Shown: positions 39,727 through 62,975 of the stretch, one piece after another | Layout of the letters: every line of letters starts with the position of its first letter | Numbering within the stretch: the stretch's first letter is position 1 | From: an uncultured archaeon | GTDB lineage: Archaea > Aenigmatarchaeota > Aenigmatarchaeia > Aenigmatarchaeales > Aenigmatarchaeaceae | Direction of reading: 5' to 3' | NCBI GenBank assembly: GCA_964348065.1 | Contig: CAYGBE010000155.1 | Location: forward strand, 35,664 to 99,663 | Length of the DNA stretch: 64,000 nt | Notes under the pieces: generated by a model | What the model was told of the DNA's origin: nothing | Seen by the model: only the letters and a program-made list of their open reading frames with translations | The model's database searches: none | Position numbers and translations under genes: made by a program

Positions 39727-40428
39727 ATGGTCGACGGTGTGGAATATTTAACTCAAAGTTTAGCACAATTAGCTGCACATCAGCAAAAAATAGGTGAATT
39801 TATAGGACAGCTTCATCAAAGAATGAGTGAACGTGAGTTACCTACAACAATTGGTTCAATAGAACAACAACAAAAATTATTGCAGAGATTGGGAGAGTGG
39901 GAAAGGTATGCAAAAGGAATTCCAGGAAAGATTTCTGATGATGTTCTTGCTTATTATGTTGAAGGTGCTCCAGGTCGTGTAATAACTGGAAGAGATCTTG
40001 GTGATAATACACCAGTTGGTTTAGTACCTCACCCAGTACCTTTAGACCCAACATCCGCATTTTATGTGTTAACACTTGCTGCTCAAACTACTGAAGAAGC
40101 AATCGATTCTGCAAGGTTAAAATATAATGCTAAAGATATAGAAGAATTAGATGGATTTGAAAAAGAATTAAATAAAGCAGTTGGTGATGCTTTAGTGGGG
40201 GGTGAAGGTAGACCACCCGGTGCTGGAGAAACTGGTAGTGGTAGAAGTTCTTATCCATCAATTATTTTTGGGGATATGGGAGATAATAATCAAATATATT
40301 TTGGTTTGCCAGATGCAACACCACCAAGTGGCAGAACAAGACTCCCAGTAAGTGGAGAATTTCCACTAAATGAAGTGGATCGAATAATTGTAGAAAGAGA
40401 GAGAGAAACATACCAAAGAGGAGGTTAA
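39727..40428 (+). CDS. soluble Gly/Pro/Ala-rich hypothetical protein; first gene of the compositionally distinct island
   Basis: 233 aa with no TM segment. Amino-acid and GC composition are unlike the flanking genes. Ends …ERERETYQRGG, with a GGAGGT motif inside its last codons. Confidence 0.45.
   Translation: MVDGVEYLTQSLAQLAAHQQKIGEFIGQLHQRMSERELPTTIGSIEQQQKLLQRLGEWERYAKGIPGKISDDVLAYYVEGAPGRVITGRDLGDNTPVGLVPHPVPLDPTSAFYVLTLAAQTTEEAIDSARLKYNAKDIEELDGFEKELNKAVGDALVGGEGRPPGAGETGSGRSSYPSIIFGDMGDNNQIYFGLPDATPPSGRTRLPVSGEFPLNEVDRIIVERERETYQRGG
40420..40425 (+). promoter_or_regulatory. Shine-Dalgarno-like GGAGGT 7 nt upstream of the ATG at 40432
   Basis: Seen directly in the sequence. Similar AGGTGGT and GGTGA motifs precede 41777 and 42374. 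Confidence 0.4.
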
Positions 40429-40431
40429 AAT

Positions 40432-40566
40432 ATGGCTGAAGAAAGAAGAAGAGTAATGACAATTGGAATTGATAAAACTGAAATTCCAACATCAGGAGAA
40501 TATGACCTTAGCAACGTGGATATAGAAGTACAAAGACAAAAAGAAAAATACACAAGAAAACAATAA
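40432..40566 (+). CDS. 44-aa basic ORF translationally coupled to 39727-40428
   Basis: Hand-translated: MAEERRRVMTIGIDKTEIPTSGEYDLSNVDIEVQRQKEKYTRKQ. Under the track cutoff. Confidence 0.3.
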   Translation: MAEERRRVMTIGIDKTEIPTSGEYDLSNVDIEVQRQKEKYTRKQ

Positions 40567-40623
40567 AACAAATGAAAAAGTGTATTTATTAAATTTATAT
40601 ATGCGGTTATCTATATTTTTCTT

Positions 40624-41223
40624 ATGGCATTTGAATATTTAGGTTCAGGAACTGTAGACTTAACTAATCTGATATTTAGAGAAATATTAAAAATTAGTCC
40701 TACTCTTATGTCTAGATACTTTACTCTTCAAGATCAAGTTTTATATTTAATCTTAATTCCTTCTGTTATTATTATTTTATTCATCTGGACTTTTGGTTAC
40801 TGGATTGTTGGAAGTGCTCACAGAGGTCTTAGACTTCTAATTTCAATGATTGCTTATATTTACATTGTTTATTCTGGGTGGTATGGTTCATTCATTATTC
40901 CGATAATATTGGCTTGGTTCCCAATGGTATTACTGTCATTTTTCCTATTCTTTATAATGACAAGAATATTCCATCCATTGAATATTAGTGGAGCATCAAA
41001 AATTATTAGTGCAGGTTTTGAAAAAGGTAGTAGAAAAGGGAGAGACATTAAAAAATTAGAACATAAAATAGATATGGTCCAAAGAAAGATTACAAAAACT
41101 AGACAACAAGAAGCATCAGCACAAGATAATGAAACAAGAGCTCGCCTAAGAAGAGTAAGAATAGCACTAGAGCATAAAAAAATGGATTTAGAAGACAAAC
41201 TTGACAGAGTAGAAGGCGGCTAA
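40624..41223 (+). CDS. membrane protein (3-4 TM) with a C-terminal charged coiled-coil tail
   Basis: 199 aa. TM block followed by …KKLEHKIDMVQRKITKTRQQEASAQDNETRARLRRVRIALEHKKMDLEDKLDRVEGG. Confidence 0.5.
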   Translation: MAFEYLGSGTVDLTNLIFREILKISPTLMSRYFTLQDQVLYLILIPSVIIILFIWTFGYWIVGSAHRGLRLLISMIAYIYIVYSGWYGSFIIPIILAWFPMVLLSFFLFFIMTRIFHPLNISGASKIISAGFEKGSRKGRDIKKLEHKIDMVQRKITKTRQQEASAQDNETRARLRRVRIALEHKKMDLEDKLDRVEGG

Positions 41224-41224
41224 C

Positions 41225-41704
41225 ATGGCTCTTCCGTTTGATATAACAATGTTCCAATCAGAAGAGATTCTAGTACCATTTCTATTTATTTTAGCAGTTG
41301 TTTTTGGTGCTGTTAATAAAACCAATGTTTTTAGAAACAGAGGTGTTAATTTTCTAGTCTCTTTGGCATTAGCATTTTTTGCAGTTTCCAACACAGCCTT
41401 CATTGATTTTCTCTGGTCCCAATTTGGAAGCATAACAATATTCTTTATTGCCATGTTTTTCATAATTTTTGTACTTGAAGCTTTTGGAGTAAGAAAAGGG
41501 CCAGGAGGAAACGGTGCAGATGCCTTAATAATAAATGCTGGCGTACTTTTTGTTTTATTGTCAATAGGTTATTTGTACACAGACTTTTTCCCAAGGCTTC
41601 CAATAATAGGTGGGGGTCAGAATCTTCTACTTCTTATTCTAGTAGTGTTTATAGTACTAATTTTCTGGTTTGCCTATAAGTCTGGATCACCACAAAGACG
41701 TTAA
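41225..41704 (+). CDS. small 4-TM membrane protein, LE-motif family paralog 1
   Basis: LAVVFGA…IFVLEAFGVRKGPGGNGADALIINAG aligns with 41777 and 42374. Confidence 0.5.
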   Translation: MALPFDITMFQSEEILVPFLFILAVVFGAVNKTNVFRNRGVNFLVSLALAFFAVSNTAFIDFLWSQFGSITIFFIAMFFIIFVLEAFGVRKGPGGNGADALIINAGVLFVLLSIGYLYTDFFPRLPIIGGGQNLLLLILVVFIVLIFWFAYKSGSPQRR

Positions 41705-41776
41705 TTATCGTAGAGTAGTGAAAAAAGATAGTTTTATATACTAGTTCTATTCAATATATTACTAGGTGGTAGTAAT

Positions 41777-42355
41777 ATGAAATTAACCGAAAACATAGAA
41801 AAAACCTGGGCATTTTTGTTAGGGTTTTTAGTAGCCGCAACTCCAGCATTGGCAAACCCCATTGAATCAATGATAGTTACATTAAGAGATGCTGGGTTTC
41901 AATTAGTTTTGTTATGGCTATTAACCTTAGCAGTAGTCTATGGTATATTATCTCATGTAGAGTTACCTAAATCAATAACAGCCAGAGGAGTGATATCAAT
42001 AGTTGCTTCATTCCTAGTTTTAGTGGCTGCTGCAGGAACACAAGCTGCTACATTCCTTAGCTCTATGACCACAGGAGCAATAGTGGTTGCTTTTGGATTA
42101 ATGATTACAATGATCTTCCTTGAAATAACTCAAACCAAAGCTGAAGGAGAACATATATTTTCCAAACATCCAAGATTTTTTGGAGCAGCTTTAATAGCAA
42201 TTGCAATAATGGTGTTCGTTGGAGCAGGTGGATTGAATTTCATAGCAATTCCAATGATATCAATCTCAGCACCAGTAATGGCAATTGGAGTTTTTTTAAT
42301 CGTTATGGTGGCAAGTGTATGGATATTAGTTAAAGAAACAGGTGAAAGTAAATAA
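41777..42355 (+). CDS. small membrane protein, LE-motif family paralog 2 (with N-terminal signal-like segment)
   Basis: LVLLWLLTLAVVYGIL…ISIVASFLVLVA…IFLEITQTKAEGE…VGAGGL. Clear alignment to 42374. Confidence 0.5.
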   Translation: MKLTENIEKTWAFLLGFLVAATPALANPIESMIVTLRDAGFQLVLLWLLTLAVVYGILSHVELPKSITARGVISIVASFLVLVAAAGTQAATFLSSMTTGAIVVAFGLMITMIFLEITQTKAEGEHIFSKHPRFFGAALIAIAIMVFVGAGGLNFIAIPMISISAPVMAIGVFLIVMVASVWILVKETGESK

Positions 42356-42373
42356 AAAAATTGGTGAAAAAAT

Positions 42374-42883
42374 ATGCCAGATGGAATATTTGCATTCCTA
42401 GCGGGATTAGGTCTACCTCATTTACTATTGTGGGTATTGACATTCGCAGTGGTCTTTGCAGTATTAACAAAGCTTAAAGTGTTCGGTAGAGCACCAGCTA
42501 CTTTGATTTCAATAGTTGCAGGTGTTTTCGTATTAATGGCAGTTCCAGCTGCTTTGGTAACAGTAATTGCCGGTATGTCAACAGGTTTAGTTGCAGTTGC
42601 TATAGGTGTAATTACCTTAATAGCATTACTAGAAATTGCTGGAGCTAAACATGAAGTAAGAGATAAAGATGGTAATGTAACTGGTTACGCACCTTGGACT
42701 CATGGACATGGAACTGCAATGGCTGCAATAATGATAGTAGTTGCATTATTGATATTCAATGCTGTAGGCGGACTTGCATTACTTGGAATTAGTATACCTA
42801 CATTTGGTTATGGAACATGGCTTTTAATCCTAGTAGGAATAGCTGTATTGTGGATGATGTCAGAATCTCCTAAAGCAGTTTAG
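42374..42883 (+). CDS. small membrane protein, LE-motif family paralog 3
   Basis: HLLLWVLTFAVVFAVL…ISIVAGVFVLMA…ALLEIAGAKHEVR…AVGGLALLG. Confidence 0.5.
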   Translation: MPDGIFAFLAGLGLPHLLLWVLTFAVVFAVLTKLKVFGRAPATLISIVAGVFVLMAVPAALVTVIAGMSTGLVAVAIGVITLIALLEIAGAKHEVRDKDGNVTGYAPWTHGHGTAMAAIMIVVALLIFNAVGGLALLGISIPTFGYGTWLLILVGIAVLWMMSESPKAV

Positions 42884-42901
42884 TGACTTTCAGTGACTTT
42901 T

Positions 42902-43681
42902 TTATTTTTCTTTTTTTAATTTTTCTACCAAATTAGACATGGTTCTAATATTACCTGTTAATTCTGGAAGAAAATCTTTGAAAACTCTTTCAATAGATCC
43001 TATTCTTCCTTGTATTCCTTCTACAGATTCTCCAAATTCTTCAAGCTTAGAAATCATGGTTTTTTCTTTTTCTTCTAAAACACTTTCAATACTATTCATT
43101 TCTTTTCTCAAAGATTCAATCTGATTTTGCAATTGTATGTCTCTTTTTTCAAAACTTTCTAATCTTTTTTCAAATTCATCCCATCTTTCAGCAACTATTG
43201 CCTCAATTATTTCTTCAACAGTTATTTCAGTTGCTGGTGGTAATTGAGATCTTTTTACTTCTGGTTGTTCTGGTATTCTATGCTCAGGTACTACGTGTTC
43301 TACAGGAGGTGGTACTTGAACAACTCTTTCAGGTGGATAACCCATAGGCATTGGCCTTCTTGTAACTTCTCCCATTGGAACTGGTCCGCCAAAAGTTTCT
43401 TCTGCAGCAGTTCCTAAACCAGATGCAGTTGGTGTTGGTGCTTCTGGTACAGGTGCCTCAGCCGCTGTTAATGGTGATGGCGGTGCTCCAGAAACAACTC
43501 TTTCTTTTAGAGCAATTCTTAAAGCTTTATCAATATGCTCAGGAGTAAACCCTTGAGCTTCCAATCTAGCAATTATATCAGGTTCAGAAAGACCTTGAGC
43601 AGAATATCTTAAAACAAGATCAACTGGAATATAAATTTTTTTCTTTTCTTTTTTCTTTTTACCTAAACTAAACGGAAACAT
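42902..43681 (-). CDS. coiled-coil protein with a small N-terminal helical domain and a Pro-rich linker
   Basis: 259 aa. Lys-rich start, a PPSPLTAAEAPVPEAPTPTA linker and a C-terminal heptad-rich region. Divergent from the ATPase gene. Confidence 0.45.
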   Translation of the reverse strand: MFPFSLGKKKKEKKKIYIPVDLVLRYSAQGLSEPDIIARLEAQGFTPEHIDKALRIALKERVVSGAPPSPLTAAEAPVPEAPTPTASGLGTAAEETFGGPVPMGEVTRRPMPMGYPPERVVQVPPPVEHVVPEHRIPEQPEVKRSQLPPATEITVEEIIEAIVAERWDEFEKRLESFEKRDIQLQNQIESLRKEMNSIESVLEEKEKTMISKLEEFGESVEGIQGRIGSIERVFKDFLPELTGNIRTMSNLVEKLKKEK

Positions 43682-44057
43682 CTCTTAACCTCTCTTCTAT
43701 TATATTTTCTGCTTCTTCCCTTGTTATAAATTTTGTTCTTATTGGGTTATAAATCGATATTATATTCTCTAATTCTCTTAACTCTGTTTTCTTGGCTACC
43801 TTCTCTAAATTCTTATTAATCCTTAATAATTCATTGTCAATCTTAATTATATTTTTTTCTATTTCTTCGATTTTTGCTGTTAACTTCTCATTAATAGTCT
43901 TCTTCTCTTCTTCTAATCTTAAAACAATGTTTTCTAAAGTGTTAATTCGGTTTTCAATTAAAGAATCTCTTTCTTCTAATGATCTTAATCTTCTTACAGT
44001 CTCATTGGTTCTTCTTACAATTTCATTTAAAACTGGCTGAATGTCTTTTTCTGCCAT
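43668..44057 (-). CDS. small coiled-coil protein (129 aa)
   Basis: Continuous heptad-like E/K/L/I-rich sequence. Overlaps the upstream gene by 14 nt. Confidence 0.4.
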   Translation of the reverse strand: MAEKDIQPVLNEIVRRTNETVRRLRSLEERDSLIENRINTLENIVLRLEEEKKTINEKLTAKIEEIEKNIIKIDNELLRINKNLEKVAKKTELRELENIISIYNPIRTKFITREEAENIIEERLRDVSV

Positions 44058-44123: not shown

Positions 44124-46361
44124 GTGGTTTTTGAGGGTGAAGTCACAGATGGAATCTTGAGAGTAAATTGTTTAGGGTCTATTTTTGGTTTTACTCTTGA
44201 AGATTCTGATGTTGTGATGGCTAGAGTTATTGAAAAGCTAATTGAAGAAAGAAAAGTTGTTGGTATTGTTTTAGCAGAAACAAGAGAATATGAATATGAT
44301 TATGAACAAACAAAAATGTTAACACAAATTGCCAATGCCATCATGAAAGCTTTAAGAGAAGAAAGAATAGTTTCAATAAAAAATATTGCAACTGGCAAAT
44401 GTGCAAAATATTTAGGGGTTTGGTATACATGGTTAAGGGATTTGGTAACATTGCAATTAAGAGGAGACCCAATAGGTGCTTATTTAAATTTAACAAGAGA
44501 GATCAGACACTTGAAAACTAAAGCTAAAACTTCAGAAGAATATGCAAGATGCGTAGATCATTATCTTAAGAATGCTTTGTTTCCTTTGAAAGAGCTTCTA
44601 GATGCTTGTGAATTAATTCAAAAAGCAAAACCATTTCTAGTTGGTTATCATATTGGCGACAGGAAACTTTATAGAAAGTTTTTCAGACCAACAACAAGAC
44701 CAAATTTCATGTACACAAAATTCATGACGCAAGCACCTCCAGGAGAACCAATTGATAAATATAAAGTTGAGAATATAGACATTGAGATATTTAAGGTTCC
44801 TGGAAAGATAAGGTATATTTATCATGTTGTTCCTCCTGAATTTAAATTAAGTGAGGAAGAATATACTCTCTTAGACGCTGCAAGAAGAATCTTAGAAAGA
44901 AGAAGACCAAGAGAACTAGAAATAGCAGAACAAGAAAAAATGAGAGAGCTCTTTCATACTCTAAGTTTAGATTTATTAGAAGACTTGTCAGAAGAAATGG
45001 GAAAACCTTTTGAAAAAGGAAAAATGGAAGCATTGGCAGCAATGCTAACAAGACATACTGCAGGTCTAGGAATATTAGAAATTTTATTAAGAGACAGTAA
45101 AATAGAAGATATTTTTATTAATTCTCCTTTAGGCAATTTACCAATTTTTATTAATCATCAAGAGTTTGAAGAATGTGAAACAAACTTAGTTCCTACACAA
45201 GCAGATGGTAACAGATGGTCAACAAGGTTTAAACTTATATCAGGAAGACCTTTGGATGAGGCAAATCCTGTTTTAGACGCAGAAGTTACTGTACCTGGCG
45301 GAGTTGCAAGAATTGCTGCAATATATCCAAGATTATCTCCTGATGGATTGGGTTTTGCAATAAGAAGACACAGATTTAAACCATGGACATTTCCCTTGTT
45401 CCTAAATGAAAAGTTTTTGAATGGTTTATTTGGAGGATTAATTTGGTTTTTAGCTTCATATGGAAGAACTTATTTGGTTGCTGGTTCAAGAGGTGCTGGA
45501 AAAACTTCTTTTCTTGGATCAACCATGTTACAAATATTACCTTACTATAGAATCTTAATCTCAGAAGATACTTTGGAACTTCCTGTTGAACAACTAAGAA
45601 ATTTGGGTTATAATATTCAAAGACTAAAATCAAGGTCTGTTATAACAAGAGTTGAATTAGAGCTGCCTGCAGAAGAGGTTGTTAGAACTGCACTAAGATT
45701 AGGAGATTCTTGCTTATTCATAGGAGAAATTAGAAGTGTAGAAGCAAAAGCTTTGTTTGAAGCTATGAGAATTGGAGCAATGGCAAATGTTGTTGCTGGA
45801 ACAATTCACGGAGAATCTGCTTACGGAGTCTTTGATAGAATTGTAAATGATTTAGGAGTTCCTCCAACAAGTTTCAAAGCAACAGACTTGGTCATTGTTT
45901 GTAACAAACTAAAAACTCCAGATGGTTTAAAAACATTTAGAAGAATAACAGAGGTAACAGAAGTCAGAAAGCACTGGAAAAAAGATCCTGCTGATGAAGG
46001 TGGTTTTGTAAATCTTATGGAATATCATGCTGGAGAAGATACCTTGAAAGCAACTGACACTTTATTAAATGGTGAATCACAAATTTTAAACCAAATTGCT
46101 GAAAGGGTTCCTGGATGGACTGGAAGGTGGGAACGTGTTTGGGATAACATTCTATTAAGAGCCAAAATTTTAGATACTGTTGTTGATATTGCTAAAAAAG
46201 TTAATAACCTAGATCTGCTAGAAGCCGAAACAACAATAAAAGTAAATGAAATGTTTCATGAATTCGCTGAAAAATCCAGAAAGGAGATAGGAGTTGTTGA
46301 TAGTAAAAGAGTTTATGAAAACTGGTTGGATTGGTTTAAGAAATACGCAAAGGCTGTTTAA
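44124..46361 (+). CDS. secretion/pilus-assembly ATPase of the FlaI/TadA/VirB11 (GspE) superfamily with a long N-terminal extension
   Basis: Walker A LVAGSRGAGKTSFLGS, Asp box ILISEDTLEL, Walker B RLGDSCLFIGEIRSVEA, His box AGTIHG. Walker A sits near residue 455, against about 265 in FlaI. Confidence 0.85.
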   Translation: MVFEGEVTDGILRVNCLGSIFGFTLEDSDVVMARVIEKLIEERKVVGIVLAETREYEYDYEQTKMLTQIANAIMKALREERIVSIKNIATGKCAKYLGVWYTWLRDLVTLQLRGDPIGAYLNLTREIRHLKTKAKTSEEYARCVDHYLKNALFPLKELLDACELIQKAKPFLVGYHIGDRKLYRKFFRPTTRPNFMYTKFMTQAPPGEPIDKYKVENIDIEIFKVPGKIRYIYHVVPPEFKLSEEEYTLLDAARRILERRRPRELEIAEQEKMRELFHTLSLDLLEDLSEEMGKPFEKGKMEALAAMLTRHTAGLGILEILLRDSKIEDIFINSPLGNLPIFINHQEFEECETNLVPTQADGNRWSTRFKLISGRPLDEANPVLDAEVTVPGGVARIAAIYPRLSPDGLGFAIRRHRFKPWTFPLFLNEKFLNGLFGGLIWFLASYGRTYLVAGSRGAGKTSFLGSTMLQILPYYRILISEDTLELPVEQLRNLGYNIQRLKSRSVITRVELELPAEEVVRTALRLGDSCLFIGEIRSVEAKALFEAMRIGAMANVVAGTIHGESAYGVFDRIVNDLGVPPTSFKATDLVIVCNKLKTPDGLKTFRRITEVTEVRKHWKKDPADEGGFVNLMEYHAGEDTLKATDTLLNGESQILNQIAERVPGWTGRWERVWDNILLRAKILDTVVDIAKKVNNLDLLEAETTIKVNEMFHEFAEKSRKEIGVVDSKRVYENWLDWFKKYAKAV

Positions 46362-48451
46362 TGATTTTAAAAAAAAAGGACAAGAAAACAAAGAAACTTG
46401 CAAAAGCTTTAATGAAGGCCGAGGAAGCAAAAAGAATAGAAATGCAAAAAGTTTTGAAAATAAGTGAAATAAAAATTCCTGAAAAAAGAGAATTCTATCC
46501 TTATCCACGAGAGTACATGACATTTTTAGAAGAAGTTAAAATAAAACCAAAAACCCTTTATGAAAAAGCATGCCATTTTGCAGAAGGTTTATTCCCAATA
46601 GAGCCTGGAGGAAAGACAAGGGAAAAAATTTTAGAAAGTTTAAGGGCTGCTTACATTAATTCAACCCCTAGAGGATCATTCTCTTTGGCAATCTTAATAA
46701 CAATGTTCATGATCGTATTTGCCATGTTTTATATTGTATTCATAGGTACTGATGTTTTTGGTTTCTTTGGTTTTGGTTTTGCTTTCGTAGTATTTTGGTA
46801 TTTCTACAATTATCCAGCTGCCAGAGCCAAAACAATTAGTGTGAGAATGTCTTCTGATGCTGTTCTTGCAATTTTATACATGGTCATTTACATGAGAGCT
46901 TCTCCTAATTTGGAGGGAGCAATAAAATTTGCATCTAAAAATTTGGACAGTCCTTTAGGATGGGACTTAAGAAAATTGTTGTGGGACATAGAAATTGGAA
47001 GATATTCTTCAGGCAATGAGGCTTTGGTTGTCTATGTAACAAAATGGAAGGAAAAAAACAAAGAATTTGCAGAAGCTTTGAATTTACTAAGAGGTTCCGC
47101 AGTTGAAATGAAGAGAAGAAAAATGGTTTATGATGAAACAATAGATGTTATATTAAATGGAACACTAGAAAGGGCAAAACATTATGCAGCAGAACTAAGA
47201 ATGCCAATGATGCTTATTTATGCTGTTGGTGTTTTGCTTCCTGTTATGGGTTTGGTTTTGTTTCCAATAATCTTAATATTTATTTCAGACGTTGTGAAAC
47301 CAAGTTTTGTGATTTTTGGTTATGATATTCTTTTGCCGTTATTTCTTTACTTTATTGTTAATCATATACTATCAACCAAACCTCCAACCTTTTCTCCGCC
47401 AAACATATCTAAAGCAAAAGGGGTTCCCCCAATGGGAAAATTTGCCTTGGGAAATGCTTTGATTCCAATATGGCCTATAGCCCTACTAGTATCTTTACCA
47501 TTTATATTCGCAGGATTGATGGGATTGTCAGACCCTGACCCTTATTATTCTGTTACATTTTCTATTGTAATTATTTTTGGGATTGCAATGATAGTATCTA
47601 CTTATGCGTTTTTAGATTCTTATCAAAAAAACAGAGTCAGAAAGGATATAGAAAAAATTGAAAATGAGTTTGCAGTAGCATTGTTCCAGCTTGGTAATAT
47701 AATTGCAGGAGGTACTCCTCTTGAAAAGGCTATTGATCAAGTAAAAGTAAATCTAAAAGAATTAAAGATTGTTGATATGTTTGATTTAATAAGTCTGAAC
47801 ATAAAAAAGTTTGGTTATACTTTTGAACAAGCTCTGTTTGACAAAGAGGTTGGAGCAATATGGTACTATCCATCAAGCTTAATTCAATCAATAATGAAAA
47901 CTGTGATAGAGTCTTCAAAGAAAAACATTAGAACAGCCGCAAACTCAATGGTTGTAATATCAAGATATTTGAAAGGAGTTCATGAAGTTAAAGAAGAGAT
48001 AAACGAAATTTTAGGTGAAACAGTTTCTAGCATGAAATTTTTAGCAATGTTTCTATCTCCAATGGTTGCAGGTGTTACTGTAACTTTGGCTGTAATTATA
48101 TTAAGAATATTAGAAAACTTAGGGGCTGCCATGGAAGGCATAATGGGAACAGCTGGTGCTACTGGTAGTTTAAACGCAGCACAAACAATGTTAATGATTC
48201 CTTGGGCAATGGGAGGAGAATTACCAATCTCGCCCACATCATTTCAGTTGATTGTTGGTGTTTACATGATTGAAACTGCTATTTTATTAGCCGTATTTTT
48301 AAATGGAATTCAATATGGAGAAGACCCTGTTGGCATGAGGAACAATGTCTGGAATATTCTATTAATTGGTATAATATTGTACACTATAAGTTGGTTTGTC
48401 ACATATTCTATGTTTGGAGGAACAATAGAGGGTTTGTTAGCCCCGGTATAA
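46361..48451 (+). CDS. FlaJ/TadC-like polytopic membrane platform protein (two T2SSF-like cytoplasmic domains)
   Basis: 696 aa. Basic cytoplasmic N-terminus and two helical cytoplasmic domains between TM bundles. Start overlaps the ATPase stop (TAATGA). Confidence 0.7.
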   Translation: MILKKKDKKTKKLAKALMKAEEAKRIEMQKVLKISEIKIPEKREFYPYPREYMTFLEEVKIKPKTLYEKACHFAEGLFPIEPGGKTREKILESLRAAYINSTPRGSFSLAILITMFMIVFAMFYIVFIGTDVFGFFGFGFAFVVFWYFYNYPAARAKTISVRMSSDAVLAILYMVIYMRASPNLEGAIKFASKNLDSPLGWDLRKLLWDIEIGRYSSGNEALVVYVTKWKEKNKEFAEALNLLRGSAVEMKRRKMVYDETIDVILNGTLERAKHYAAELRMPMMLIYAVGVLLPVMGLVLFPIILIFISDVVKPSFVIFGYDILLPLFLYFIVNHILSTKPPTFSPPNISKAKGVPPMGKFALGNALIPIWPIALLVSLPFIFAGLMGLSDPDPYYSVTFSIVIIFGIAMIVSTYAFLDSYQKNRVRKDIEKIENEFAVALFQLGNIIAGGTPLEKAIDQVKVNLKELKIVDMFDLISLNIKKFGYTFEQALFDKEVGAIWYYPSSLIQSIMKTVIESSKKNIRTAANSMVVISRYLKGVHEVKEEINEILGETVSSMKFLAMFLSPMVAGVTVTLAVIILRILENLGAAMEGIMGTAGATGSLNAAQTMLMIPWAMGGELPISPTSFQLIVGVYMIETAILLAVFLNGIQYGEDPVGMRNNVWNILLIGIILYTISWFVTYSMFGGTIEGLLAPV

Positions 48452-48483: not shown

Positions 48484-50010
48484 ATGAAAGCAATTATGGT
48501 TAGTCTTGTTAAAAATCTTATTATTGTTTTAATAGTGTTTCTTTTGGGTCTTGGATTGCTTCTTTTAGCACGTGATGCTTTTTTAGGAAAATCCCTCGAA
48601 CAATTTAAAAGATTCAAAGTTTACAAACCTTACATTTTTAACGTAAATGATTTGTTAGTAGATCCAAATGACCCAGATGTTTTTGATGCAGGTGAATTAA
48701 GTAATTACCTTTCAACAACTTTTTGCAGTGATCTTAAAAATTGTTTAGAAGTGAATGCCAGAGGCGGAGAAAAATGCGTTATAAGTTATAAAGTTGAACC
48801 TAATGTAGATCTTGATCCTGATGACATTAGAATTGCCATAAACAACTGCCCCACAGAAGATATAAAGGAAGAGTTGTACGGTGGAATAGGAAGAAAGGTA
48901 TGTGGATTTAAGAGTGATTCGCTCAACCCAAATATAGACAGAATCAGAGAAGATAACATAACAATTGTGGATTATCAACCTTATTTGCATAACTGTTATC
49001 TTCCAGAAAGTCTTGGGACAAAAAATATTTTTGATGAAAAAGATAAGATTTATTATTTTTATAGTGGTAGGGGAGATGTGAGTGGATATGATTTTGAAAA
49101 CGGCGGAATAGTAAGAATAGTTATAACTAATGTTAGTGTAGTAGGTCTTTATGCAGACTGCTCTTATAGTGTTTATGTTTGTGGACAAAATGCCATAGCA
49201 GAATCTGAAGACGAAACACCAGTTGATGTTTTTAGAACTGTTCAGAACTTGCCTGAAGAAGAGCTCTACTATAATGAAACAGTCATTTGGAAGGGTGATA
49301 CACCTCAGGATTTTTTACAAATTTCTTTATGGTGGCTTCTTTGTAAGCCTTTTGAACTAATTGTTCCATTTCTAGATTGTGGAGATCTACCAAATCCAAT
49401 AAATTACAATATTTATGGCTATCACCCACGTACTTATGAATTTACATTTAATTCAAGCGGTTGTCTTTCACGCGGGACTTGTAGGGAAGCTTTAATTGAT
49501 GCTGCAGACGCTGGAATATGGGAATGGGGTAAAAAAAATTATAAAAAAGATAAAACAATGAAATACTTTAGAGATTCTTATTATCCAGACATAATGCGCA
49601 ATTATTTCAGCTATTCACCTATTGATATTAATAACATTTCGTATGATTCGGCAATAGCCTTTGGCTCAGGATGTTGGAATGTTAACTATGAAAATACAAA
49701 CACTGTTTACAGGCAAAGATTAATTTTTGGTGATGATGTTTTTATTGATTCAAATAGTCTATATCATATTTTTAATTTCAGTTCGCCTTTTAATCTAAAC
49801 GCAAACGAAAAATTAAGAATGAGTCTGGGAATTAAAAAAATATTTATTACGGGTAAGATGTATCATATTTTAATTGAAATGCCACCACTTATAATTTTAG
49901 ATAAAGAATCATCCAGACTTAAAGATGTTAAAGATACATATAATCTAAGAGATGATTTCGAATCAAGAACAATATTAGTTATGGATCCCATAACATTTTG
50001 TAGTGAATAA
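48484..50010 (+). CDS. giant-adhesin family paralog 1: pilin-like N-terminus (MKA + hydrophobic helix), Cys-containing extracellular protein
   Basis: 508 aa. N-terminus MKAIMVSLVKNLIIVLIVFLLGLGLLLLA. Shared signature DCSYSVYVCGQNAIAESEDE. N-terminal domain (GGIGRKVCGFKSDSLN) aligns with paralog 2. Confidence 0.6.
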   Translation: MKAIMVSLVKNLIIVLIVFLLGLGLLLLARDAFLGKSLEQFKRFKVYKPYIFNVNDLLVDPNDPDVFDAGELSNYLSTTFCSDLKNCLEVNARGGEKCVISYKVEPNVDLDPDDIRIAINNCPTEDIKEELYGGIGRKVCGFKSDSLNPNIDRIREDNITIVDYQPYLHNCYLPESLGTKNIFDEKDKIYYFYSGRGDVSGYDFENGGIVRIVITNVSVVGLYADCSYSVYVCGQNAIAESEDETPVDVFRTVQNLPEEELYYNETVIWKGDTPQDFLQISLWWLLCKPFELIVPFLDCGDLPNPINYNIYGYHPRTYEFTFNSSGCLSRGTCREALIDAADAGIWEWGKKNYKKDKTMKYFRDSYYPDIMRNYFSYSPIDINNISYDSAIAFGSGCWNVNYENTNTVYRQRLIFGDDVFIDSNSLYHIFNFSSPFNLNANEKLRMSLGIKKIFITGKMYHILIEMPPLIILDKESSRLKDVKDTYNLRDDFESRTILVMDPITFCSE

Positions 50011-50164
50011 AAATGAGAGGTCTTGATAAGGGTACAATCATAGCAATATTTGTTTTAGTCTTATGTTTATTAATTTTCTTTTTGATCTTAATAGATGTTT
50101 TTAATTTTGATATAACAAATCTAATACCACTCTGATATTTATATCCGTAATTTAAAATAAAATT

Positions 50165-52660
50165 ATGAAAGGCATATCACTTATTATTAGTGTATTCGTT
50201 CTTGTTATAACACTTTTTTTGGTTCTTACTTTTGCATCTATATTTGGTTTTTTTTCTGGAGAAGAAGACACTTCTATAGAACCATCTGATTCAATTGTAA
50301 TGGGTGATTATTCAACTTATATATTGGATGAAAATCCTGTTGATCCAAATACATATGATGAGTGCGACAAGTTAAAAAAAGCTATAAAATATACCATATT
50401 AAATGAAAGGTCTTATAAAATCGATGAAATAGCATATGGAGATGATCTTTATAGTCCTATTCCGTTTCCTTTTATAGGAGATTGTGCTGGTGAAGAAATT
50501 TTAACAGATATTGGGGGTGGACTATCACAAAAAGTATGTACATTTAGAACAATAAACTTAAATGATGTGCAAGGCAATGGTGCTGCTGGAAGCCCATATG
50601 GTGGAATAAGTGATTCTTTAAATCTTTCTTTTGATGTATGCTCTTATGGTAATGCTAATGATCCTTTTTTATTAGTAGCAGGTAATACAGGACCATTTCC
50701 TGAAGAAATTGATGCTGCCCCTAATATAGCTAAATTATATTATTCTCCTGATTATCTTTATCAAAGGGATGGAAATTACGTGCATCATCCATCACTAAAC
50801 GACAACAGTGCATTTGGTAATACCTATAATGGTCCAGGAAGATTAAAAATGTATGTTGGTAATGCAACATTTTTAGGTATTGCTCCGTTTTCTGGTGGTG
50901 ATTGTAGATTTAATCTTTATTTTTGCCCACGGCCAGCAATAGCAAGATCAAAAGAAAATGCAACAATAAAAATTTTTGATTTGTTTAAGAATTTAGAGTT
51001 ATTTTATTTTGATGTACTTGGCTTTATTCCAGACCACGTTAGAGATCAAACTGAATTGGCTGTACCTATGCCTGGTTATGATAAAAGGTTTTATAATTGG
51101 AACTACTATGATGTGCCTTTAGATGGTGAATATAAAGTTGAGACCATAATAAATGCCATTAAAGAAGGTTTGTATATAAGTACTAGAGCAAAAAATTATT
51201 TTTGGTCACATCCTCATTGGGATATTGAAAGAGACATTAATATAAATATGCCCGGAGAATGTTGGAATCCATCTTACACTAGCCGACTCACATCTAATAA
51301 TCCTGATGATCGTTCACACTCTATAAGATTTAATTGTGATGATGATAACATCTGCGCTGGCACTTTAAGAATAAAAATAGGTATAAGACATGACAATATT
51401 ACTCAAAACGTAGATGGTGAAGATAAAAATTTAAAATATGTTTCAGGAATAATTGGCTTTTGTAGTAGTCTTAGACCAGTGGCAAATTTCCTAGAATCTG
51501 CAACAATAGTAGCTGTTGGTGAATCTATTAATTTTGATGCAAGCGGTAGCTATGATGATGGCACTATTGTAAGTTATGAGTGGGATTTTGGTGATGGAAG
51601 TACTGGTACTGGTGTATTAATCAGTCATGCCTATTCAGCTGTTGGAACTTATACTGTAACACTAAATGTAACAGATGATGAAGGATTATCACGAACAATA
51701 AGTGCAACAAAAACTGTTTATGAGTGTGGAAACGGTATTTTAGAAGCTGGAGAAGTGTGTGATGATGGAAATACTATAGATTGTAATCCGTATCCTGGAT
51801 GTACTGCTGATTGTTCGAGATGGCAATCTTGTGGGGATGGTATATCAGAGTGTACTGATGTTTGTGATGATGGAAACAATGTTAATTGTGATTCATACCC
51901 TGGTGGATGTAGAGGTGATTGTAGTAGAATAGAAGAGTGTGACAACAATATAGTAGAGTGTGGAGAAGAGTGTGACGGTACTACTATACCTTCAACTTGT
52001 TTAGCAGAGGGTTTTGTTGGAGGTGTCTTAGATTGTTATGCAGGAAGTTGTACATTTGATTATACTAATTGTGTTTGTGCTGATAAATGTGAACTTGGAT
52101 TTGAATATAGGAATGGTCTAGGTGATCCATGTGTATATTCTTTAATGAGAGATTGTAGATATGGTTGTAGTGGGGATAACTTGAACTGTATACCTGGAGA
52201 ATGGTGTCCCTCAGAAACTTGTTCAGGTGGTAGCTGTCCTTTCCCAGGTCCTTATGGAGAAACAGTTTCAACAGTAGCACAATGTATAAAACAAGGTGAT
52301 CCAGCACCTACTGAAACATATGAAAATAGATGGGCAACTAATCTTATTGATTGTTTAGGAAGTTGTGGGGGAGGAGGTAATTGGTGTAATATAGGCTTTT
52401 GGTATTGTTGTGGATCTAACGAGATATGTACTGCTACATGTGCAGTAGACACAACATGTACTTATGAATGTTATGACACGGGAGGTGGTTTGAACCAACA
52501 ATACACTTGTACAGATGGAGGTGCTTGTATTAATGGTTGTGATGATTTTTGCTTTGGAAATAATAAAGTTGGATTCGGTTGTGTACTCGATACATGTAAC
52601 ATGCTAGTTGGAATTGCCTGCCCTGCAGGAACAAATTGTGTTAATGGCGCTTGTGTATAA
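50165..52660 (+). CDS. giant-adhesin family paralog 2: MKG class-III-like N-terminus, PKD domain, three Myxococcus-type Cys repeats and a Cys-rich C-terminus
   Basis: 831 aa. MKGISLIISVFVLVITLFLVLTF. PKD motif …YEWDFGDGSTGTG…GTYTVTLNVTDDEG. Three repeats of CG[ND]G…GE.CDDGN. Signature DCRFNLYFCPRPAIA. Confidence 0.7.
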   Translation: MKGISLIISVFVLVITLFLVLTFASIFGFFSGEEDTSIEPSDSIVMGDYSTYILDENPVDPNTYDECDKLKKAIKYTILNERSYKIDEIAYGDDLYSPIPFPFIGDCAGEEILTDIGGGLSQKVCTFRTINLNDVQGNGAAGSPYGGISDSLNLSFDVCSYGNANDPFLLVAGNTGPFPEEIDAAPNIAKLYYSPDYLYQRDGNYVHHPSLNDNSAFGNTYNGPGRLKMYVGNATFLGIAPFSGGDCRFNLYFCPRPAIARSKENATIKIFDLFKNLELFYFDVLGFIPDHVRDQTELAVPMPGYDKRFYNWNYYDVPLDGEYKVETIINAIKEGLYISTRAKNYFWSHPHWDIERDININMPGECWNPSYTSRLTSNNPDDRSHSIRFNCDDDNICAGTLRIKIGIRHDNITQNVDGEDKNLKYVSGIIGFCSSLRPVANFLESATIVAVGESINFDASGSYDDGTIVSYEWDFGDGSTGTGVLISHAYSAVGTYTVTLNVTDDEGLSRTISATKTVYECGNGILEAGEVCDDGNTIDCNPYPGCTADCSRWQSCGDGISECTDVCDDGNNVNCDSYPGGCRGDCSRIEECDNNIVECGEECDGTTIPSTCLAEGFVGGVLDCYAGSCTFDYTNCVCADKCELGFEYRNGLGDPCVYSLMRDCRYGCSGDNLNCIPGEWCPSETCSGGSCPFPGPYGETVSTVAQCIKQGDPAPTETYENRWATNLIDCLGSCGGGGNWCNIGFWYCCGSNEICTATCAVDTTCTYECYDTGGGLNQQYTCTDGGACINGCDDFCFGNNKVGFGCVLDTCNMLVGIACPAGTNCVNGACV

Positions 52661-52944
52661 AAACATTTATAATTTTAAATAAAAAAATTATCCTGGTCTT
52701 TTATAAACATACTTAACTTCACTTTTTCTCTTTTTATAGAATAACCAAATTAAGTAAATGGCAAGTATAATGAGTAAAGGTAGAAAAACAAGGAAAGATA
52801 AAATAAGTAGTAAAATTATAATCTTTTTTTGGTTTGACTTAAAAAATTCTTTTATACCCATATATATTCTTAAATAACAGCGGTTTAAATATTTTTTGAA
52901 ACAATATCAACACTAATTTATATACGGAAAATTAAAAATAAAAT

Positions 52945-53580
52945 ATGGAAAAGGGGCAATTCGTTCTTTATATTGTTTTGACAGTTGTACTTTTGGCACT
53001 TGTTTTTGTTTTTGTTACTCAAATGTTGTCTTTATCAGAAAGGGCTGAAGAAGAGCTCTCACCCACACTTGAAGAACCAGAAGAAGTTTTAGAATCCAGA
53101 TACACTTCATTGGTCTTATCTCCTGAAGATTTACCAGAAGATATAATTTACAAACTGTTTAGACATTTTGATCCAGTATTTTTAAATGAAACAAGTGGTC
53201 CAATAGTACTTTATAATGTATTTATATTGGACCTCAAAGGAAATGAGTATGATGATACTACTGGTTTTTTGATAGAAAACTTAACAGAAGGTATAGAAGA
53301 CTTTAGTGCTTATGATAATCTCTATCAAATAGGTAGGGATGCTCAACAACCACCAAATTGTGGAGCTGTACAAAGAACTAATGTTATAAATTATAATAAT
53401 GACTGTTGGAGTGGCGTTTTAGCCCTTGTTGGGCCCTGCAGTATTTATGTGAATGGTGATGCAAACGATAAATTTAATGATAGAATAAAAATAAGAGTAA
53501 TGTGGCGATTTACAGGATTAACATCACCTATTACAGATAGAGAAATAATTCGCCCCATAGTAACAATATGTGATGGTTGA
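52945..53580 (+). CDS. pilin-like protein (211 aa) with a class-III-signal-like N-terminus
   Basis: MEKGQFVLYIVLTVVLLALVFVFV: K-G followed immediately by a 20-residue hydrophobic helix, as in archaeal prepilins. Confidence 0.5.
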   Translation: MEKGQFVLYIVLTVVLLALVFVFVTQMLSLSERAEEELSPTLEEPEEVLESRYTSLVLSPEDLPEDIIYKLFRHFDPVFLNETSGPIVLYNVFILDLKGNEYDDTTGFLIENLTEGIEDFSAYDNLYQIGRDAQQPPNCGAVQRTNVINYNNDCWSGVLALVGPCSIYVNGDANDKFNDRIKIRVMWRFTGLTSPITDREIIRPIVTICDG

Positions 53581-53957
53581 TTTTAGTGGAAATAGAAGAA
53601 ACATTCAAAACCCTTATGGGAGTAATGATGGTGCTGGCAGTTATAATAGTAGTGGCTGTAGTAGGAGGAGGTTTAGTAAGAGGAAGCACATATATAAAAG
53701 AGTGTAATCCTGCTGAGTACGATGCAACACGTCTTGCTCCTAGTGTTGAGCCATGTGGTTTTGTCGACAGTGGTTTGGGGCCTGAACGTGTTTATTGCGA
53801 AGAAATAATAAAAATTATTGAGGGAGTTCCAGTACCCTTTGCTGACAAATGTATGGATGCAGGAAAAAATAAATGTTGCCCTATAGTAACTGAAACAGGC
53901 TATGATTGGTATGTAGAGGTAATTGGAAATCGCTGTTGTAAGGTAACGGTGCTTTAG
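53577..53957 (+). CDS. small membrane-anchored Cys-containing protein (126 aa)
   Basis: N-terminal hydrophobic helix (VMMVLAVIIVVAVVGGGLV), then a soluble domain with 6 Cys. Confidence 0.35.
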   Translation: MILVEIEETFKTLMGVMMVLAVIIVVAVVGGGLVRGSTYIKECNPAEYDATRLAPSVEPCGFVDSGLGPERVYCEEIIKIIEGVPVPFADKCMDAGKNKCCPIVTETGYDWYVEVIGNRCCKVTVL

Positions 53958-54136
53958 TGTCTGAAGAACTTATTGAAATGGTACTTATATTTATAATAGC
54001 GGGCGCACTTCTCGCAATGATAATTTTATTTTTAATGAATGTAAGATTAACAAGCGGTTTATTTGGAAACATGTTTTGGATAAGGGCGGGCATAGAAGCA
54101 CTTCTTGCCATATTAGGCATAAGAGGCGCTTTTTAA
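53957..54136 (+). CDS. 59-aa hydrophobic ORF (GTG start; alternative ATG at 53975)
   Basis: Hand-translated: …MVLIFIIAGALLAMIILFLMN…GIEALLAILGIRGAF. Not in the track. Confidence 0.25.
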   Translation: MSEELIEMVLIFIIAGALLAMIILFLMNVRLTSGLFGNMFWIRAGIEALLAILGIRGAF

Positions 54137-54181
54137 AATAATCATAATGGTATCTAATAATGCCATATATAGTGGTGTAAA

Positions 54182-54409
54182 ATGGATCAAGCTATAAAGA
54201 GTGCTGTTATAGTTATTGTATTTGTTATAGCTTTTGCACTAATAATTTTGATAATTCGTAGTGTATTAACAGGAGAAAGATTAGCAAACCAGTCATGTAA
54301 AGTGGTAACAAAATTCTTTGATCCGGTCTTATGGGTCCTTATAAGTAATGCAATAGACGTTTCTTTAAGGCCCTCAGATTTTATATGTGACACAATGGTA
54401 CCGTTTTAA
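54182..54409 (+). CDS. small membrane protein (75 aa)
   Basis: MDQAIKSAVIVIVFVIAFALIILII N-terminal helix. Confidence 0.3.
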   Translation: MDQAIKSAVIVIVFVIAFALIILIIRSVLTGERLANQSCKVVTKFFDPVLWVLISNAIDVSLRPSDFICDTMVPF

Positions 54410-54626
54410 TGGTGTAAAAATGGAATTTGAACTCGAACAAGAGACTTTTAGTAAAATTATTTATATTTTATTAGGGGTGATGGTATTAATAGCATTCGCA
54501 TTTATTTTAGATGTTATATTTTTTGGTGGGAATGTATTTGTCAGAAATATAGCTTGTTTGCTTGTGTGGTTTAATCCTATTAATATATTACCAGGTTATT
54601 TGGGTTGCGAAGCAATCCCATTTTAA
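54387..54626 (+). CDS. small membrane protein (probable start at ATG 54420, MEFELEQ…)
   Basis: A hydrophobic helix (IIYILLGVMVLIAFAFIL) follows the short polar N-terminus. Confidence 0.3.
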   Translation: MTQWYRFNGVKMEFELEQETFSKIIYILLGVMVLIAFAFILDVIFFGGNVFVRNIACLLVWFNPINILPGYLGCEAIPF

Positions 54627-54671
54627 AAACGATTTAGTTAATTTTATATTAAAAGAAGAGAAATTGAAAAT

Positions 54672-57600: not shown

Positions 57601-57701
57601 GTTTTAATGTTAGTGCACGGGATATTGGACATTGTCCTTGGCATTCTCCCTGGTGTGACTGGACTGAACAAAAAAGAGATGTTGGTGTGTTATGTGTATA
57701 A
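54672..57701 (+). CDS. giant-adhesin family paralog 3: MKA class-III-like N-terminus, tandem CxxCxxC array, conserved ESED domain
   Basis: 1009 aa. MKADVLITLLVIFIIVVVGF. Seven CxxCxxC units between residues 113 and 236. Signature DCSYNVHICSQEALAESEDD. Confidence 0.65.
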   Translation: MKADVLITLLVIFIIVVVGFLGVFIIGQVFGSDIERYFQSTFTGCGREGQECCPQKWCDAGLECSEINICVEKFGYEAGPSNIYLIYNSTEFFNSSQREDFFYLKTGLGGEDCSNAINCINCTKLYHFSNALTCTDCDYCNITDNTCEDCFVCDSAEGGNYQELFDCYDCGGCNVDISNYMADSCSQCSFCNGANISTYENGLSCSYCNGCEPNVGDDCYFCYECGGSEYKVCEKCERIAATTCEITSDYELCQAAKEEVMLFDGGGEPIESFLPVPWETTYSFYTTVSNVLGNCPVTGDLKKFIAEGGRQKICEYENSNFVERYFESDDTAYVPADLIRMITSGSITGENKKGILFNSCGPPPLPEEYIMGKCIDTDGGYNNLVKGTCKDESTCINGCTDYCNGNAIVEYVCEFDDCIPLLPEPPCPAVEPLNPSCVDGACVGALGTIYHNDPQIFGSSGTTPKTPEDDVPVNLQIVISDVLWNENSTNDCSYNVHICSQEALAESEDDAILGFWNLSAYFDLNAYEVEINEWPPFDLIDPIFEDVQINVTAFRYRPTFKIYVNANYDVQHIAKAIVAGLRDYMIYNSFNNKTVEFFCTNNNLHPNLETCVQNDVSVHLNDKVSWNLESFASTVDTLASIPVYKNIYYNSTKTSYSNEEVPIQITFFAYTTNYSFNYNNENLSRKILVSPVIVIGRNRAAAPTGLSFVWDCSNWDEGDKHDFYSPTCSGDEPYAISCVSENYYPTQSTDEGDYGEDLIQKIKIRNDESCVVRSRDTSGGNEQGRRVCVLCSNRTPSIVWGLTSPYDQDWYTTTWEVGEPWYMSVESKECPSGHYPISCLADIDELDPNRGDEFDEVVLTDLYLEDNKCKGTFRDLYGDGPWFNKGGYHWFRITLGIVCFDEYLGTPKWTGYVSKDEGTGPSEIWPLTISGHPIQNFSSLECNAAEFPVSVFSRVDSSDAGAYTEDILQSTYLDGQRFNVSARDIGHCPWHSPWCDWTEQKRDVGVLCV

Positions 57702-57718
57702 ATTAAAAGAGATAGTTC

Positions 57719-62089: not shown

Positions 62090-62286
62090 CTGATAGTAGT
62101 GATGATCTAAGGATTATTGACATTTCTATTTTTTGCAGAAAAATCAAGGAATAGTAAGAATATCTACCATAGTAGCTAATGCTGATGAAAAAAATCCACT
62201 GTGGATAGTCCAAAAAATTAATAGTATAATAGCAGCAACAATTAAAGCAGCTATTAAAGCACGAGTAAAATTAATAACAGATTTCA

Positions 62287-62562
62287 TTATTGACACCTGT
62301 TATAAATACAAGTTCCACCACCACAATCTGGATCATTAGTTAAACAACCACAAAAAGTTGGTTCATTATTTATACTTAAACAATACGGACCAGTAGGTTT
62401 CGTATTACAATCTGAATTATCTCTACATTCAACCTCTTCTATTGCTAAAACAGTTCCCATCTCAACTCTTCCTGAAAATAAAAAGTTAAGATGAAATGTT
62501 AGAACTATGATAGCAAGGATTAAAGCCATAACATACCACACGTTAACTTTAAATCCTTTCAT
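62287..62562 (-). CDS. small Cys-rich pilin-like protein (91 aa) with an MKG N-terminus, opposite strand
   Basis: MKGFKVNVWYVMALILAIIVLTF followed by an 11-Cys domain (…CGCLTNDPDCGGGTCIYNRCQ). Confidence 0.45.
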   Translation of the reverse strand: MKGFKVNVWYVMALILAIIVLTFHLNFLFSGRVEMGTVLAIEEVECRDNSDCNTKPTGPYCLSINNEPTFCGCLTNDPDCGGGTCIYNRCQ

Positions 62563-62624
62563 AAAATTAATTAAAATTTTTTATATATAAAACTTTTATA
62601 CTGGATTTCACTTAATAAATATGT

Positions 62625-62975
62625 ATGAAAGGCGCTGTTGCAACAGACACTTTAGTGGCTATTGGTATAATGCTACTTATAATTTTAATACTTGCAATAA
62701 TTGCATATTTTTATATTTGGGGGCAATTTCATGAGATTTCATTAGAATCTTATATAAGTCAAAATTGTGGTGAATGGGTAAAAGAAGGATGCACTAAACG
62801 TTCTGCTTTACCTCCTGATGGTATAAGAATAGAAGTAGGAACTGAGACAAAATATTTGGGTGAATTATGTGTAGCCAATTATGGTGGAGATGTAAGTAAT
62901 TGGGAAAGTGAATTTGATAGTGACCCAAAATATTATGAAAATTGTAAAGCATTTTGTATGGGTTGTCCGGAGTGA
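62625..62975 (+). CDS. pilin/archaellin-like protein (116 aa) with a class-III-signal-like N-terminus
   Basis: MKGAVATDTLVAIGIMLLIILILAIIAYF resembles archaellin and pilin N-termini (KG then A…GTL-type hydrophobic helix). The C-terminal domain has 6 Cys. Confidence 0.55.
   Translation: MKGAVATDTLVAIGIMLLIILILAIIAYFYIWGQFHEISLESYISQNCGEWVKEGCTKRSALPPDGIRIEVGTETKYLGELCVANYGGDVSNWESEFDSDPKYYENCKAFCMGCPE

Follow-up and report, generated by a model that had tools for sequence, protein, structure and literature searches.

A phylum-restricted family of five-helix membrane proteins, encoded with coiled-coil partners beside type IV filament genes in Aenigmatarchaeota

We describe a new family of small membrane proteins with five predicted transmembrane (TM) helices, encoded by three tandem genes in positions 39727-44057 of a 64,000-nt stretch (hereafter the window) of the Aenigmatarchaeota contig CAYGBE010000155.1. 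The 5-TM family is restricted to one phylum, displays an ancient tandem paralogy, is obligatorily paired with three partner proteins bearing coiled coils, and is persistently linked to filament genes. The six genes constitute a deeply conserved module, which to date has been seen only in Aenigmatarchaeota and their near relatives. The explanation that we favor, and to which we assign a probability of about one half, is that the module, vertically inherited and lineage-specific, serves a pilus-type, non-archaellum type IV filament machine as an accessory scaffold with membrane and cytoplasmic parts. A preliminary description of the same DNA had pictured the region as a candidate acquired island of 4-TM proteins sharing a conserved membrane glutamate, and several of its elements are revised below.

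Conservation of the module across lineages

The module was examined in ten lineages; the loci L016 and L020 are truncated by contig ends. The same components are always found together: a 3-TM protein with a coiled-coil tail (gene 40624 in the window), two to four tandem 5-TM paralogs (genes 41225, 41777 and 42374, hereafter paralogs A, B and C), and two soluble coiled-coil proteins corresponding to those of 129 and 259 amino acids (aa) in the window. The gene for the 3-TM protein, whose size ranges from ~200 to 255 aa among lineages, always lies ahead of the 5-TM paralogs, and the genes of the 129-aa and 259-aa types are paired in all ten lineages. Gene order is the same in the window, L001, L003, L009-L011 and L013. 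In L013 the upstream housekeeping genes differ (GatD/GatE), and the same module is present along with the ATPase and platform genes of the filament locus. In L017 the order is rearranged, with the coiled-coil pair still divergent from the ATPase gene and four paralogs located 5 kb off, and in L015 pilin-like genes directly follow the module. Altogether, the module adjoins a FlaI-like ATPase/platform pair and/or pilin-like genes in nine of the ten lineages. A link to the pilus locus, with co-occurrence of FlaI/FlaJ-like pairs elsewhere, had been raised in the preliminary description, and it is borne out here, being kept through rearrangements in distant relatives.

An independent search using the 259-aa family alone led to L019 and L020, which gave its most distant matches at 20-25% identity. 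In both, a gene of the 129-aa type lies upstream and 5-TM paralogs are found convergent downstream (hmmsearch E 1e-12 to 2e-33), while genes with a pilin N-terminus of the RKG/Q type ([KR]G/Q) are located immediately upstream; L019 also encodes the 3-TM anchor. The paralog cluster of L019 (5193-9129) is interrupted by a radical-SAM/SPASM gene, and a 57-aa N-terminal paralog fragment at 6198-6371 is apparently a duplication remnant.

The 5-TM family and its three paralogs

The relationship among the three tandem genes, which had been noticed before, is confirmed. Paralogs B and C match each other by BLASTP (E 3e-12, 29% identity over 164 residues), and pairwise comparison of paralog A with the other two gave nothing significant. 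When profiles built separately from each gene's orthologs were compared using hhalign, B and C aligned with a probability of 99.0% (E 2.3e-18), A and B with 96.1% (E 3.1e-9, 139 columns), and A and C with 85.9%, in the N-terminal part only. By these profile comparisons, 41225, 41777 and 42374 are genuine paralogs. None of the motifs by which they had been grouped, LAVV[FY]G, ISIVA and GGL, is common to all three proteins, as each matches just two. Nor did the proposed kinship with the 40624 protein and the two small proteins at 35594-36391 hold: each of the three (40624, 35594 and 36011) scored an hhalign probability below 2% against the paralogs, and the likeness of LLAEAF and LMALEAIWK is not homology.

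The paralog C protein is 100% identical to an NCBI protein, and 50 close homologs were found, of which the named ones are all from Aenigmatarchaeota. An exhaustive profile search retrieved 305 clusters, formed at 50% identity, with E≤1e-3. For 93 of them E was ≤1e-10, and full-length members are mostly of ~150-210 aa. A degenerate-pattern scan of GTDB genomes using alignment A2 found only seven loci, all in Aenigmatarchaeota. Profile searches of Pfam-A, NCBIfam and PDB sequences using the seven proteins of the region and diverse family members produced sub-threshold or generic coiled-coil matches only, in agreement with the earlier impression of an unfamiliar family. One member, P0215, carries the precomputed label PF27133.1, which was not resolvable in the Pfam copy used or in the literature; a very recent DUF may already cover the 5-TM family.

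An AF2 model of the paralog C protein (pLDDT 85.2, pTM 0.60, from a 67-sequence alignment) contains a short N-terminal helix followed by helices at residues 13-33, 39-56, 59-88, 113-130 and 146-163, with a β-hairpin at 92-107. The four TM helices initially proposed thus become five, plus the short N-terminal helix. Foldseek comparison of two AF2 models (pLDDT 72.8 and 85.2) with the PDB gave no structural match, the best hit having an E of 3.0 and TM-scores being ≤0.29. Hydropathy and the distribution of Lys/Arg fit five TM helices with the N-terminus out and the C-terminus in; the Lys/Arg-rich loops, as well as the coiled-coil tail of the 3-TM protein, all fall on the predicted cytoplasmic side, and the topology agrees with the signal-peptide-like N-terminal extension of paralog B and of several relatives. 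In paralog B the hydrophobic N-terminal segment spans residues 10-27. This signal peptide (41777-41870) looks cleavable (…ATPALA/NP), and paralogs A and C lack one. Several orthologs of paralog C (P0022, P0033, P0041-P0045) have an N-terminal 'CPPGxxCP' Cys pair that is predicted to be extracellular.

The best-conserved positions of the family are hydrophobic residues, Gly or Pro. The top signature is 'LLPW-LTFAIVYG-L' in TM1 (A 90%, L 90%, F 86%), and the second is 'F--SGG----G' in the TM4-TM5 loop. In a neighbor-joining (NJ) tree, which is rough and has no support values, the position-1 paralogs of all lineages form one clade, and the later copies have duplicated within lineages. The position-1 paralog (the 41225 type) forms an ancient orthogroup, and its single clade, together with the fixed gene order, suggests that the paralogs are distinct subunits.

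Three possible affiliations of the 5-TM proteins were considered and rejected. They are not pilins, as the [KR][GA]-plus-hydrophobic pattern in 41225 and 42374 falls after TM1, at residue 39, and not at the N-terminus. They are not prepilin peptidases either, the conserved Asp pair being absent. Four of 39 family members (E 1.5e-4 at best) and the 40624 protein (E 0.023) are weakly similar, over TM regions, to Pfam DUF2070, a predicted archaeal membrane protein. All scores were far under the 30-bit cut-off, and DUF2070 proteins are ~560 aa long; the similarity is most likely noise from hydrophobic composition.

The coiled-coil partner proteins

The 40624 protein consists of three TM helices and a strongly charged coiled-coil tail of ~80 aa that is predicted to be cytoplasmic. 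Its orthologs in the ten lineages share invariant F18, P46, L72 and G85. Nine residues before P46, at the predicted outer edge of TM1, an acidic residue (D37 in the window) is present in all ten lineages, and it is the only near-universal charged residue of the module at the edge of a TM helix.

The 259-aa protein lacks TM segments. A small domain of three helices at its N-terminus is joined through a Pro-rich linker to the coiled coil that forms the C-terminal part. Proteins of this type measure about 240-360 aa across lineages, and their conserved motifs include GRIGSIEKVFKDFLPELT. Database matches were limited to generic coiled-coil hits and a sub-threshold one to DUF7310 (26 bits versus a cut-off of 40). 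A link through DUF7310 to haloarchaeal coiled-coil proteins was rejected, as a profile search returned almost only Aenigmatarchaeota. The 129-aa protein is likewise cytoplasmic by prediction, and its alignment is characterized by ELVRRxNExxRRLRxLEER … ELKELE…NP…T.F.T.

The glutamate and the comparison with stators

The preliminary description had pointed to a conserved Glu in the membrane and had suggested a possibly ion-conducting or stator-like module. The residue is in a hydrophobic context in all three paralogs of the window, and a FlaI/FlaJ-like motor pair is adjacent to the module. The Glu is the first residue of an E-x-x-G-x-[KR] motif, where TM3 is predicted to end on the cytoplasmic side; a conserved Gly follows three residues later and a Lys/Arg five residues later. 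It occurs in just 114 of the 221 aligned family members (52%), has been lost in several orthologs of 42374 itself, and is missing from every paralog of L013, L015, L017 and L018. The family alignment contains no conserved charged residue inside any TM helix. Since the Glu is patchy and conserved intrahelical charge is lacking, the alignment argues against a general ion-binding role.

The module does resemble MotA/TolQ/ExbB systems in having small polytopic proteins beside a motor-like machine, with an acidic residue near a membrane helix. The family is not MotA/TolQ, which had been mentioned as a possibility: the MotA_ExbB profile (PF01618) matched none of the window proteins at E≤1 and, with E≤0.01 as the limit, none of 39 diverse members of the family. 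Neither another channel family nor a known fold was matched. The 5-TM family also differs from these proteins in topology and in having no large cytoplasmic domain. Unlike in systems with MotB/TolR/ExbD partners, no bitopic protein with an invariant intramembrane Asp is present, the sole membrane neighbor being the 3-TM protein 40624, and the Glu, in contrast to the acidic residue of stators, is dispensable across the family and sits at a helix end.

Composition and ancestry of the region

A compositional island of 38-45% GC, pointing to horizontal acquisition, was the other main proposal. Local GC does exceed that of the upstream flank. In 500-bp windows the region ranges from 0.28 to 0.40 (gene GC 0.27-0.39), never reaching 0.45, against a mean of 0.317 (standard deviation (sd) 0.033) for the whole window, and equally GC-rich stretches, reaching at most 0.412, occur at five other places (20.2, 51.5, 53.3, 61 and 63 kb). 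The rise in the region is restricted to codon positions 1 and 2. A switch to Ala/Gly/Val-rich proteins is real for four of the seven genes (0.25-0.39, with few Ile/Lys/Asn), but the 40624 and 43668 genes have an ordinary composition. For each of 57 open reading frames (ORFs), an expected GC was computed from amino-acid content together with the synonymous codon usage seen in the window. These values agreed closely with the observed ones (r = 0.94, residual sd 0.013), and the seven genes deviated from prediction by −0.024 to +0.032. Their GC at third codon positions (GC3) is 0.116-0.234 versus 0.188±0.037 for the window. The GC shift is thus accounted for by amino-acid content: in a genome with 19% GC3, GC is higher here simply because the membrane proteins are rich in Ala/Gly/Val and the soluble ones in Ala/Gly/Glu/Pro.

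Hallmarks of mobility are also lacking. The sole tRNA gene of the window is at 3972 and none flanks the region, exact flanking repeats are absent (only imperfect AT-rich chance repeats were seen), and a scan of the region gave no integrase-type Pfam match. For the 169-aa protein, identity is 57% in L001 and L002 and 38% in L003, and the entire stretch is collinear with the window, comprising AMMECR1, two small membrane proteins, two Trm5/TYW2 methyltransferases, diphthine synthase, DUF357, the seven genes, the ATPase, the platform and small pilin-like genes, with the block flanked by the same housekeeping genes in all three. Named family homologs are from Aenigmatarchaeota or labelled just 'archaeon', except for one Woesearchaeota entry, and no foreign donor lineage is visible among them. 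Since gene order is kept in relatives down to ~20-25% identity, the region is not an acquired island, an origin ruled out by the native GC3, the predicted GC, the conserved order, and the lack of mobility hallmarks and of a donor. By these comparisons, the region is vertically inherited.

Upstream, the two small membrane proteins encoded at 35594-35920 and 36011-36391 (108 and 126 aa) have the highest GC3 of the neighborhood (0.28-0.30); their position is kept in relatives, and neither is related to the other or to the 5-TM family. The two Trm5/TYW2-type paralogs, at 36433-37302 (+ strand) and 37898-38665 (− strand), flank a 187-aa unknown protein, and they are followed by diphthine synthase (38700-39416) and DUF357 (39416-39655), a housekeeping block that is collinear in relatives.

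Layout of the locus and neighboring filament genes

The region contains seven genes, five on the + strand (encoding 233, 199, 159, 192 and 169 aa) and two on the − strand (259 and 129 aa), the latter pair being convergent with the five and divergent from the ATPase gene (Table 1). Spacing is tight throughout. The 40624 stop codon ends 1 nt ahead of the 41225 start, the tandem paralogs are separated by 72 and 18 nt, the convergent ends of 42374 and the 259-aa gene by 18 nt, and the 259-aa and 129-aa genes overlap by 14 nt. A TATA-like 'tttatata' lies ~25 nt 5′ of the 40624 ATG, and the 66 nt between the 129-aa gene and the ATPase gene are AT-rich with TATA-like elements.

Table 1. Genes of the region and of the adjoining filament locus, in window coordinates
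Feature	Coordinates	Strand	Basis or remark
233-aa soluble Ala/Gly/Glu-rich protein	39727..40428	+	possibly first gene of + operon
199-aa 3-TM protein with coiled-coil tail	40624..41223	+	hydropathy, charge distribution
159-aa 5-TM paralog A (position-1 type)	41225..41704	+	profile-profile match to 41777; NJ tree
192-aa 5-TM paralog B, extra signal-peptide-like N-terminus	41777..42355	+	BLASTP, hhalign versus 42374
169-aa 5-TM paralog C; reference for family search and structure model	42374..42883	+	
259-aa cytoplasmic coiled-coil protein	42902..43681	−	convergent with paralog operon
129-aa cytoplasmic coiled-coil protein	43668..44057	−	divergent from ATPase gene
745-aa FlaI/VirB11-type secretion ATPase, N-terminal extension of ~220 aa	44124..46361	+	Pfam T2SSE
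696-aa polytopic protein, presumed FlaJ/TadC-like platform	46361..48451	+	position; weak ortholog matches
Pilin-like and adhesin-like gene set (filament-locus context)	48484..63288	.	N-terminal pattern, domain matches

Whether the 233-aa protein belongs to the module is doubtful. It has no TM segment and no match in Pfam or NCBIfam, and a homolog was found only in the L003-type relative (E 3e-16), the corresponding position elsewhere being occupied by fragmented or different soluble proteins. Its gene has a GC of 0.38, versus 0.393 predicted from amino-acid content, and a GC3 of 0.134. Between the 233-aa and 199-aa genes, a 44-aa ORF at 40432-40566 (MAEERRRVMTIGIDK…), with GGAGGT 7 nt upstream, was considered as an additional gene; since it is conserved in none of the fetched loci, it is probably not a gene.

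The ATPase encoded at 44124 matches Pfam T2SSE with 45.5 bits (cut-off 24.9), and the NCBIfam archaellum FlaI model over residues 217-689 with 128.7 bits, where 550 are needed. As the ATPase falls below this equivalog cut-off, the filament locus is of the pilus type and not an archaellum, and library scans of the neighboring genes gave no match to archaellum accessory families (ArlF/G/H) or archaellins. The platform gene start overlaps the ATPase stop codon. Farther downstream, at least seven ORFs have N-termini resembling class III signals, such as MKG/ISLII…, MEKG/QFVLY… and MKA/DVLIT…, according to a pattern-based test ([KR][GA]/hydrophobic at residues 2-3) and not FlaFind.

The ORFs with such N-termini include those of giant Cys-rich proteins encoded within 48484-63288, which have lengths of 831 aa (with PKD), 1009 aa and 1456 aa (with LVIVD repeats and dockerin-like) and are candidate host-adhesion tip proteins. 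The gene for the 1456-aa protein (57719-62089) contains an internal tandem duplication of ~400 nt at ~59950-60750, which is visible in near-identical 'LEV[FH]AFENxIPVGAMVAIGLGDVNW…' protein segments and in a pair of spurious ORFs (60003-60125 and 60405-60527).

By gene content, the filament locus resembles archaeal loci of Makarova clade 2 or 'system 2'. Such loci likewise have an extended FlaI/VirB11-type ATPase, several pilin-like genes with class III signals, very large adhesin-like proteins, and uncharacterized membrane proteins, and their single large platform gene has a presumed counterpart here in the 696-aa gene that overlaps the ATPase gene (PMC4858521; bioRxiv 10.64898/2026.04.22.720090). 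For 'system 2', the latter source describes ATPases extended at the N-terminus, one platform gene, large adhesins and membrane proteins that are uncharacterized (bioRxiv 10.64898/2026.04.22.720090). The portions of both papers that were consulted contain no description of the tandem 5-TM family or of the 129/259-aa pair.

Function of the module

If the module is indeed an accessory scaffold of the filament machine, the 5-TM paralogs would be non-redundant subunits of a hetero-oligomeric membrane complex, and the tail of the 3-TM protein would anchor both cytoplasmic coiled-coil proteins at the base of the machine. The complex would act as a scaffold or positioning element, and not as an ion-conducting stator. 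Its role might be analogous to that of ArlX/ArlCDE in archaella or PilMNO in bacterial pili, the analogy extending neither to sequence nor to fold. ArlX/ArlCDE and the coiled-coil arCOG07564 of subclade 4F are likewise cytoplasmic or membrane-anchored coiled-coil proteins encoded beside a filament ATPase, and a role as scaffold or regulatory ring has been proposed for them; no sequence similarity between them and the module was detected.

Several observations weigh against a role at the filament. The link comes from gene neighborhood only, with no homology to known pilus or archaellum components, and the identity of the 696-aa protein as platform is presumed, its orthologs having faint or weak precomputed T2SSF matches and a direct Pfam scan of the protein itself giving none. 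No ATPase gene lies within 10 kb of the module in L015, L018, L019 and L020, and L018 has no recognized pilin genes in reach either. In Woesearchaeota, the one member stands alone and is surrounded by housekeeping genes, although its contig is too short for this context to be informative. In addition, the sampling is nearly all from one phylum, so that the conserved order could partly be inherited synteny, and both the formation of a hetero-oligomer and its binding to the coiled-coil proteins are predictions.

The best competing explanation, which we nevertheless hold to be rather unlikely, is that the 5-TM paralogs form a small-solute channel, a transporter or a membrane-homeostasis complex working independently of any filament, with the neighborhood reflecting inherited synteny. 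The proteins are small and polytopic, have Gly-rich loops and come in several paralogs, L018 and the Woesearchaeota contig have no filament genes nearby, and two members bear the automatic JGI (Joint Genome Institute) labels 'amino acid transporter' and 'small-conductance mechanosensitive channel'. These labels are, however, unsupported by any Pfam or NCBIfam match, and conserved polar or charged intramembrane residues were not found. Constant coupling to two coiled-coil proteins and a coiled-coil-tailed membrane protein would also be unusual for transporters, and the association with ATPase or pilin genes has withstood three separate rearrangements as well as the replacement of flanking genes.

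It is clearly unlikely, in our opinion, that the module is instead a membrane-anchored coiled-coil cytoskeletal or positioning device, serving for example cell shape, the marking of division sites or the organization of a site of host contact, that came to lie near pilus genes only secondarily. Both the conserved pair of soluble coiled-coil proteins and the membrane anchor with its coiled-coil tail would suit such a device, the succession of small N-terminal domain, Pro-rich linker and coiled coil recalls membrane-tethered organizers, and sub-threshold matches to EzrA, CdvA and TolA-binding coiled coils were obtained. Those matches are, however, generic and far under the family cut-offs, and the neighborhood contains no division genes, the constant partner genes being filament genes. 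The preliminary idea of an acquired compositional island encoding ion-conducting, stator-like 4-TM proteins that use a membrane-embedded Glu is highly improbable given the composition, gene order and alignment data presented above.

The scaffold explanation also has a bolder form, which we consider quite improbable, in which the six genes specify an unrecognized base complex of a DPANN host-attachment filament, with a 5-TM hetero-oligomer and the 3-TM anchor holding a cytoplasmic coiled-coil ring that is coupled to the extended N-domain of the ATPase. If this were true, the coupling would confer on the pilus a property not known before (torque resistance, retraction or force sensing, for example), and a stator or anchor would have been invented independently of ArlF/G/X and MotAB.

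Significance

DPANN archaea depend on physical contact with their hosts, and the structures most likely to establish that contact include type IV filaments. The accessory parts of DPANN type IV filaments are still uncharacterized 'hypothetical' proteins. The present analysis removes a false lead, in that the region is no acquired island and the Glu no conserved ion-binding residue, and the six-gene module, which has no homolog in Pfam-A, NCBIfam or among solved structures, supplies definite candidates for the base or scaffold that has so far been missing for an archaeal filament other than the archaellum.

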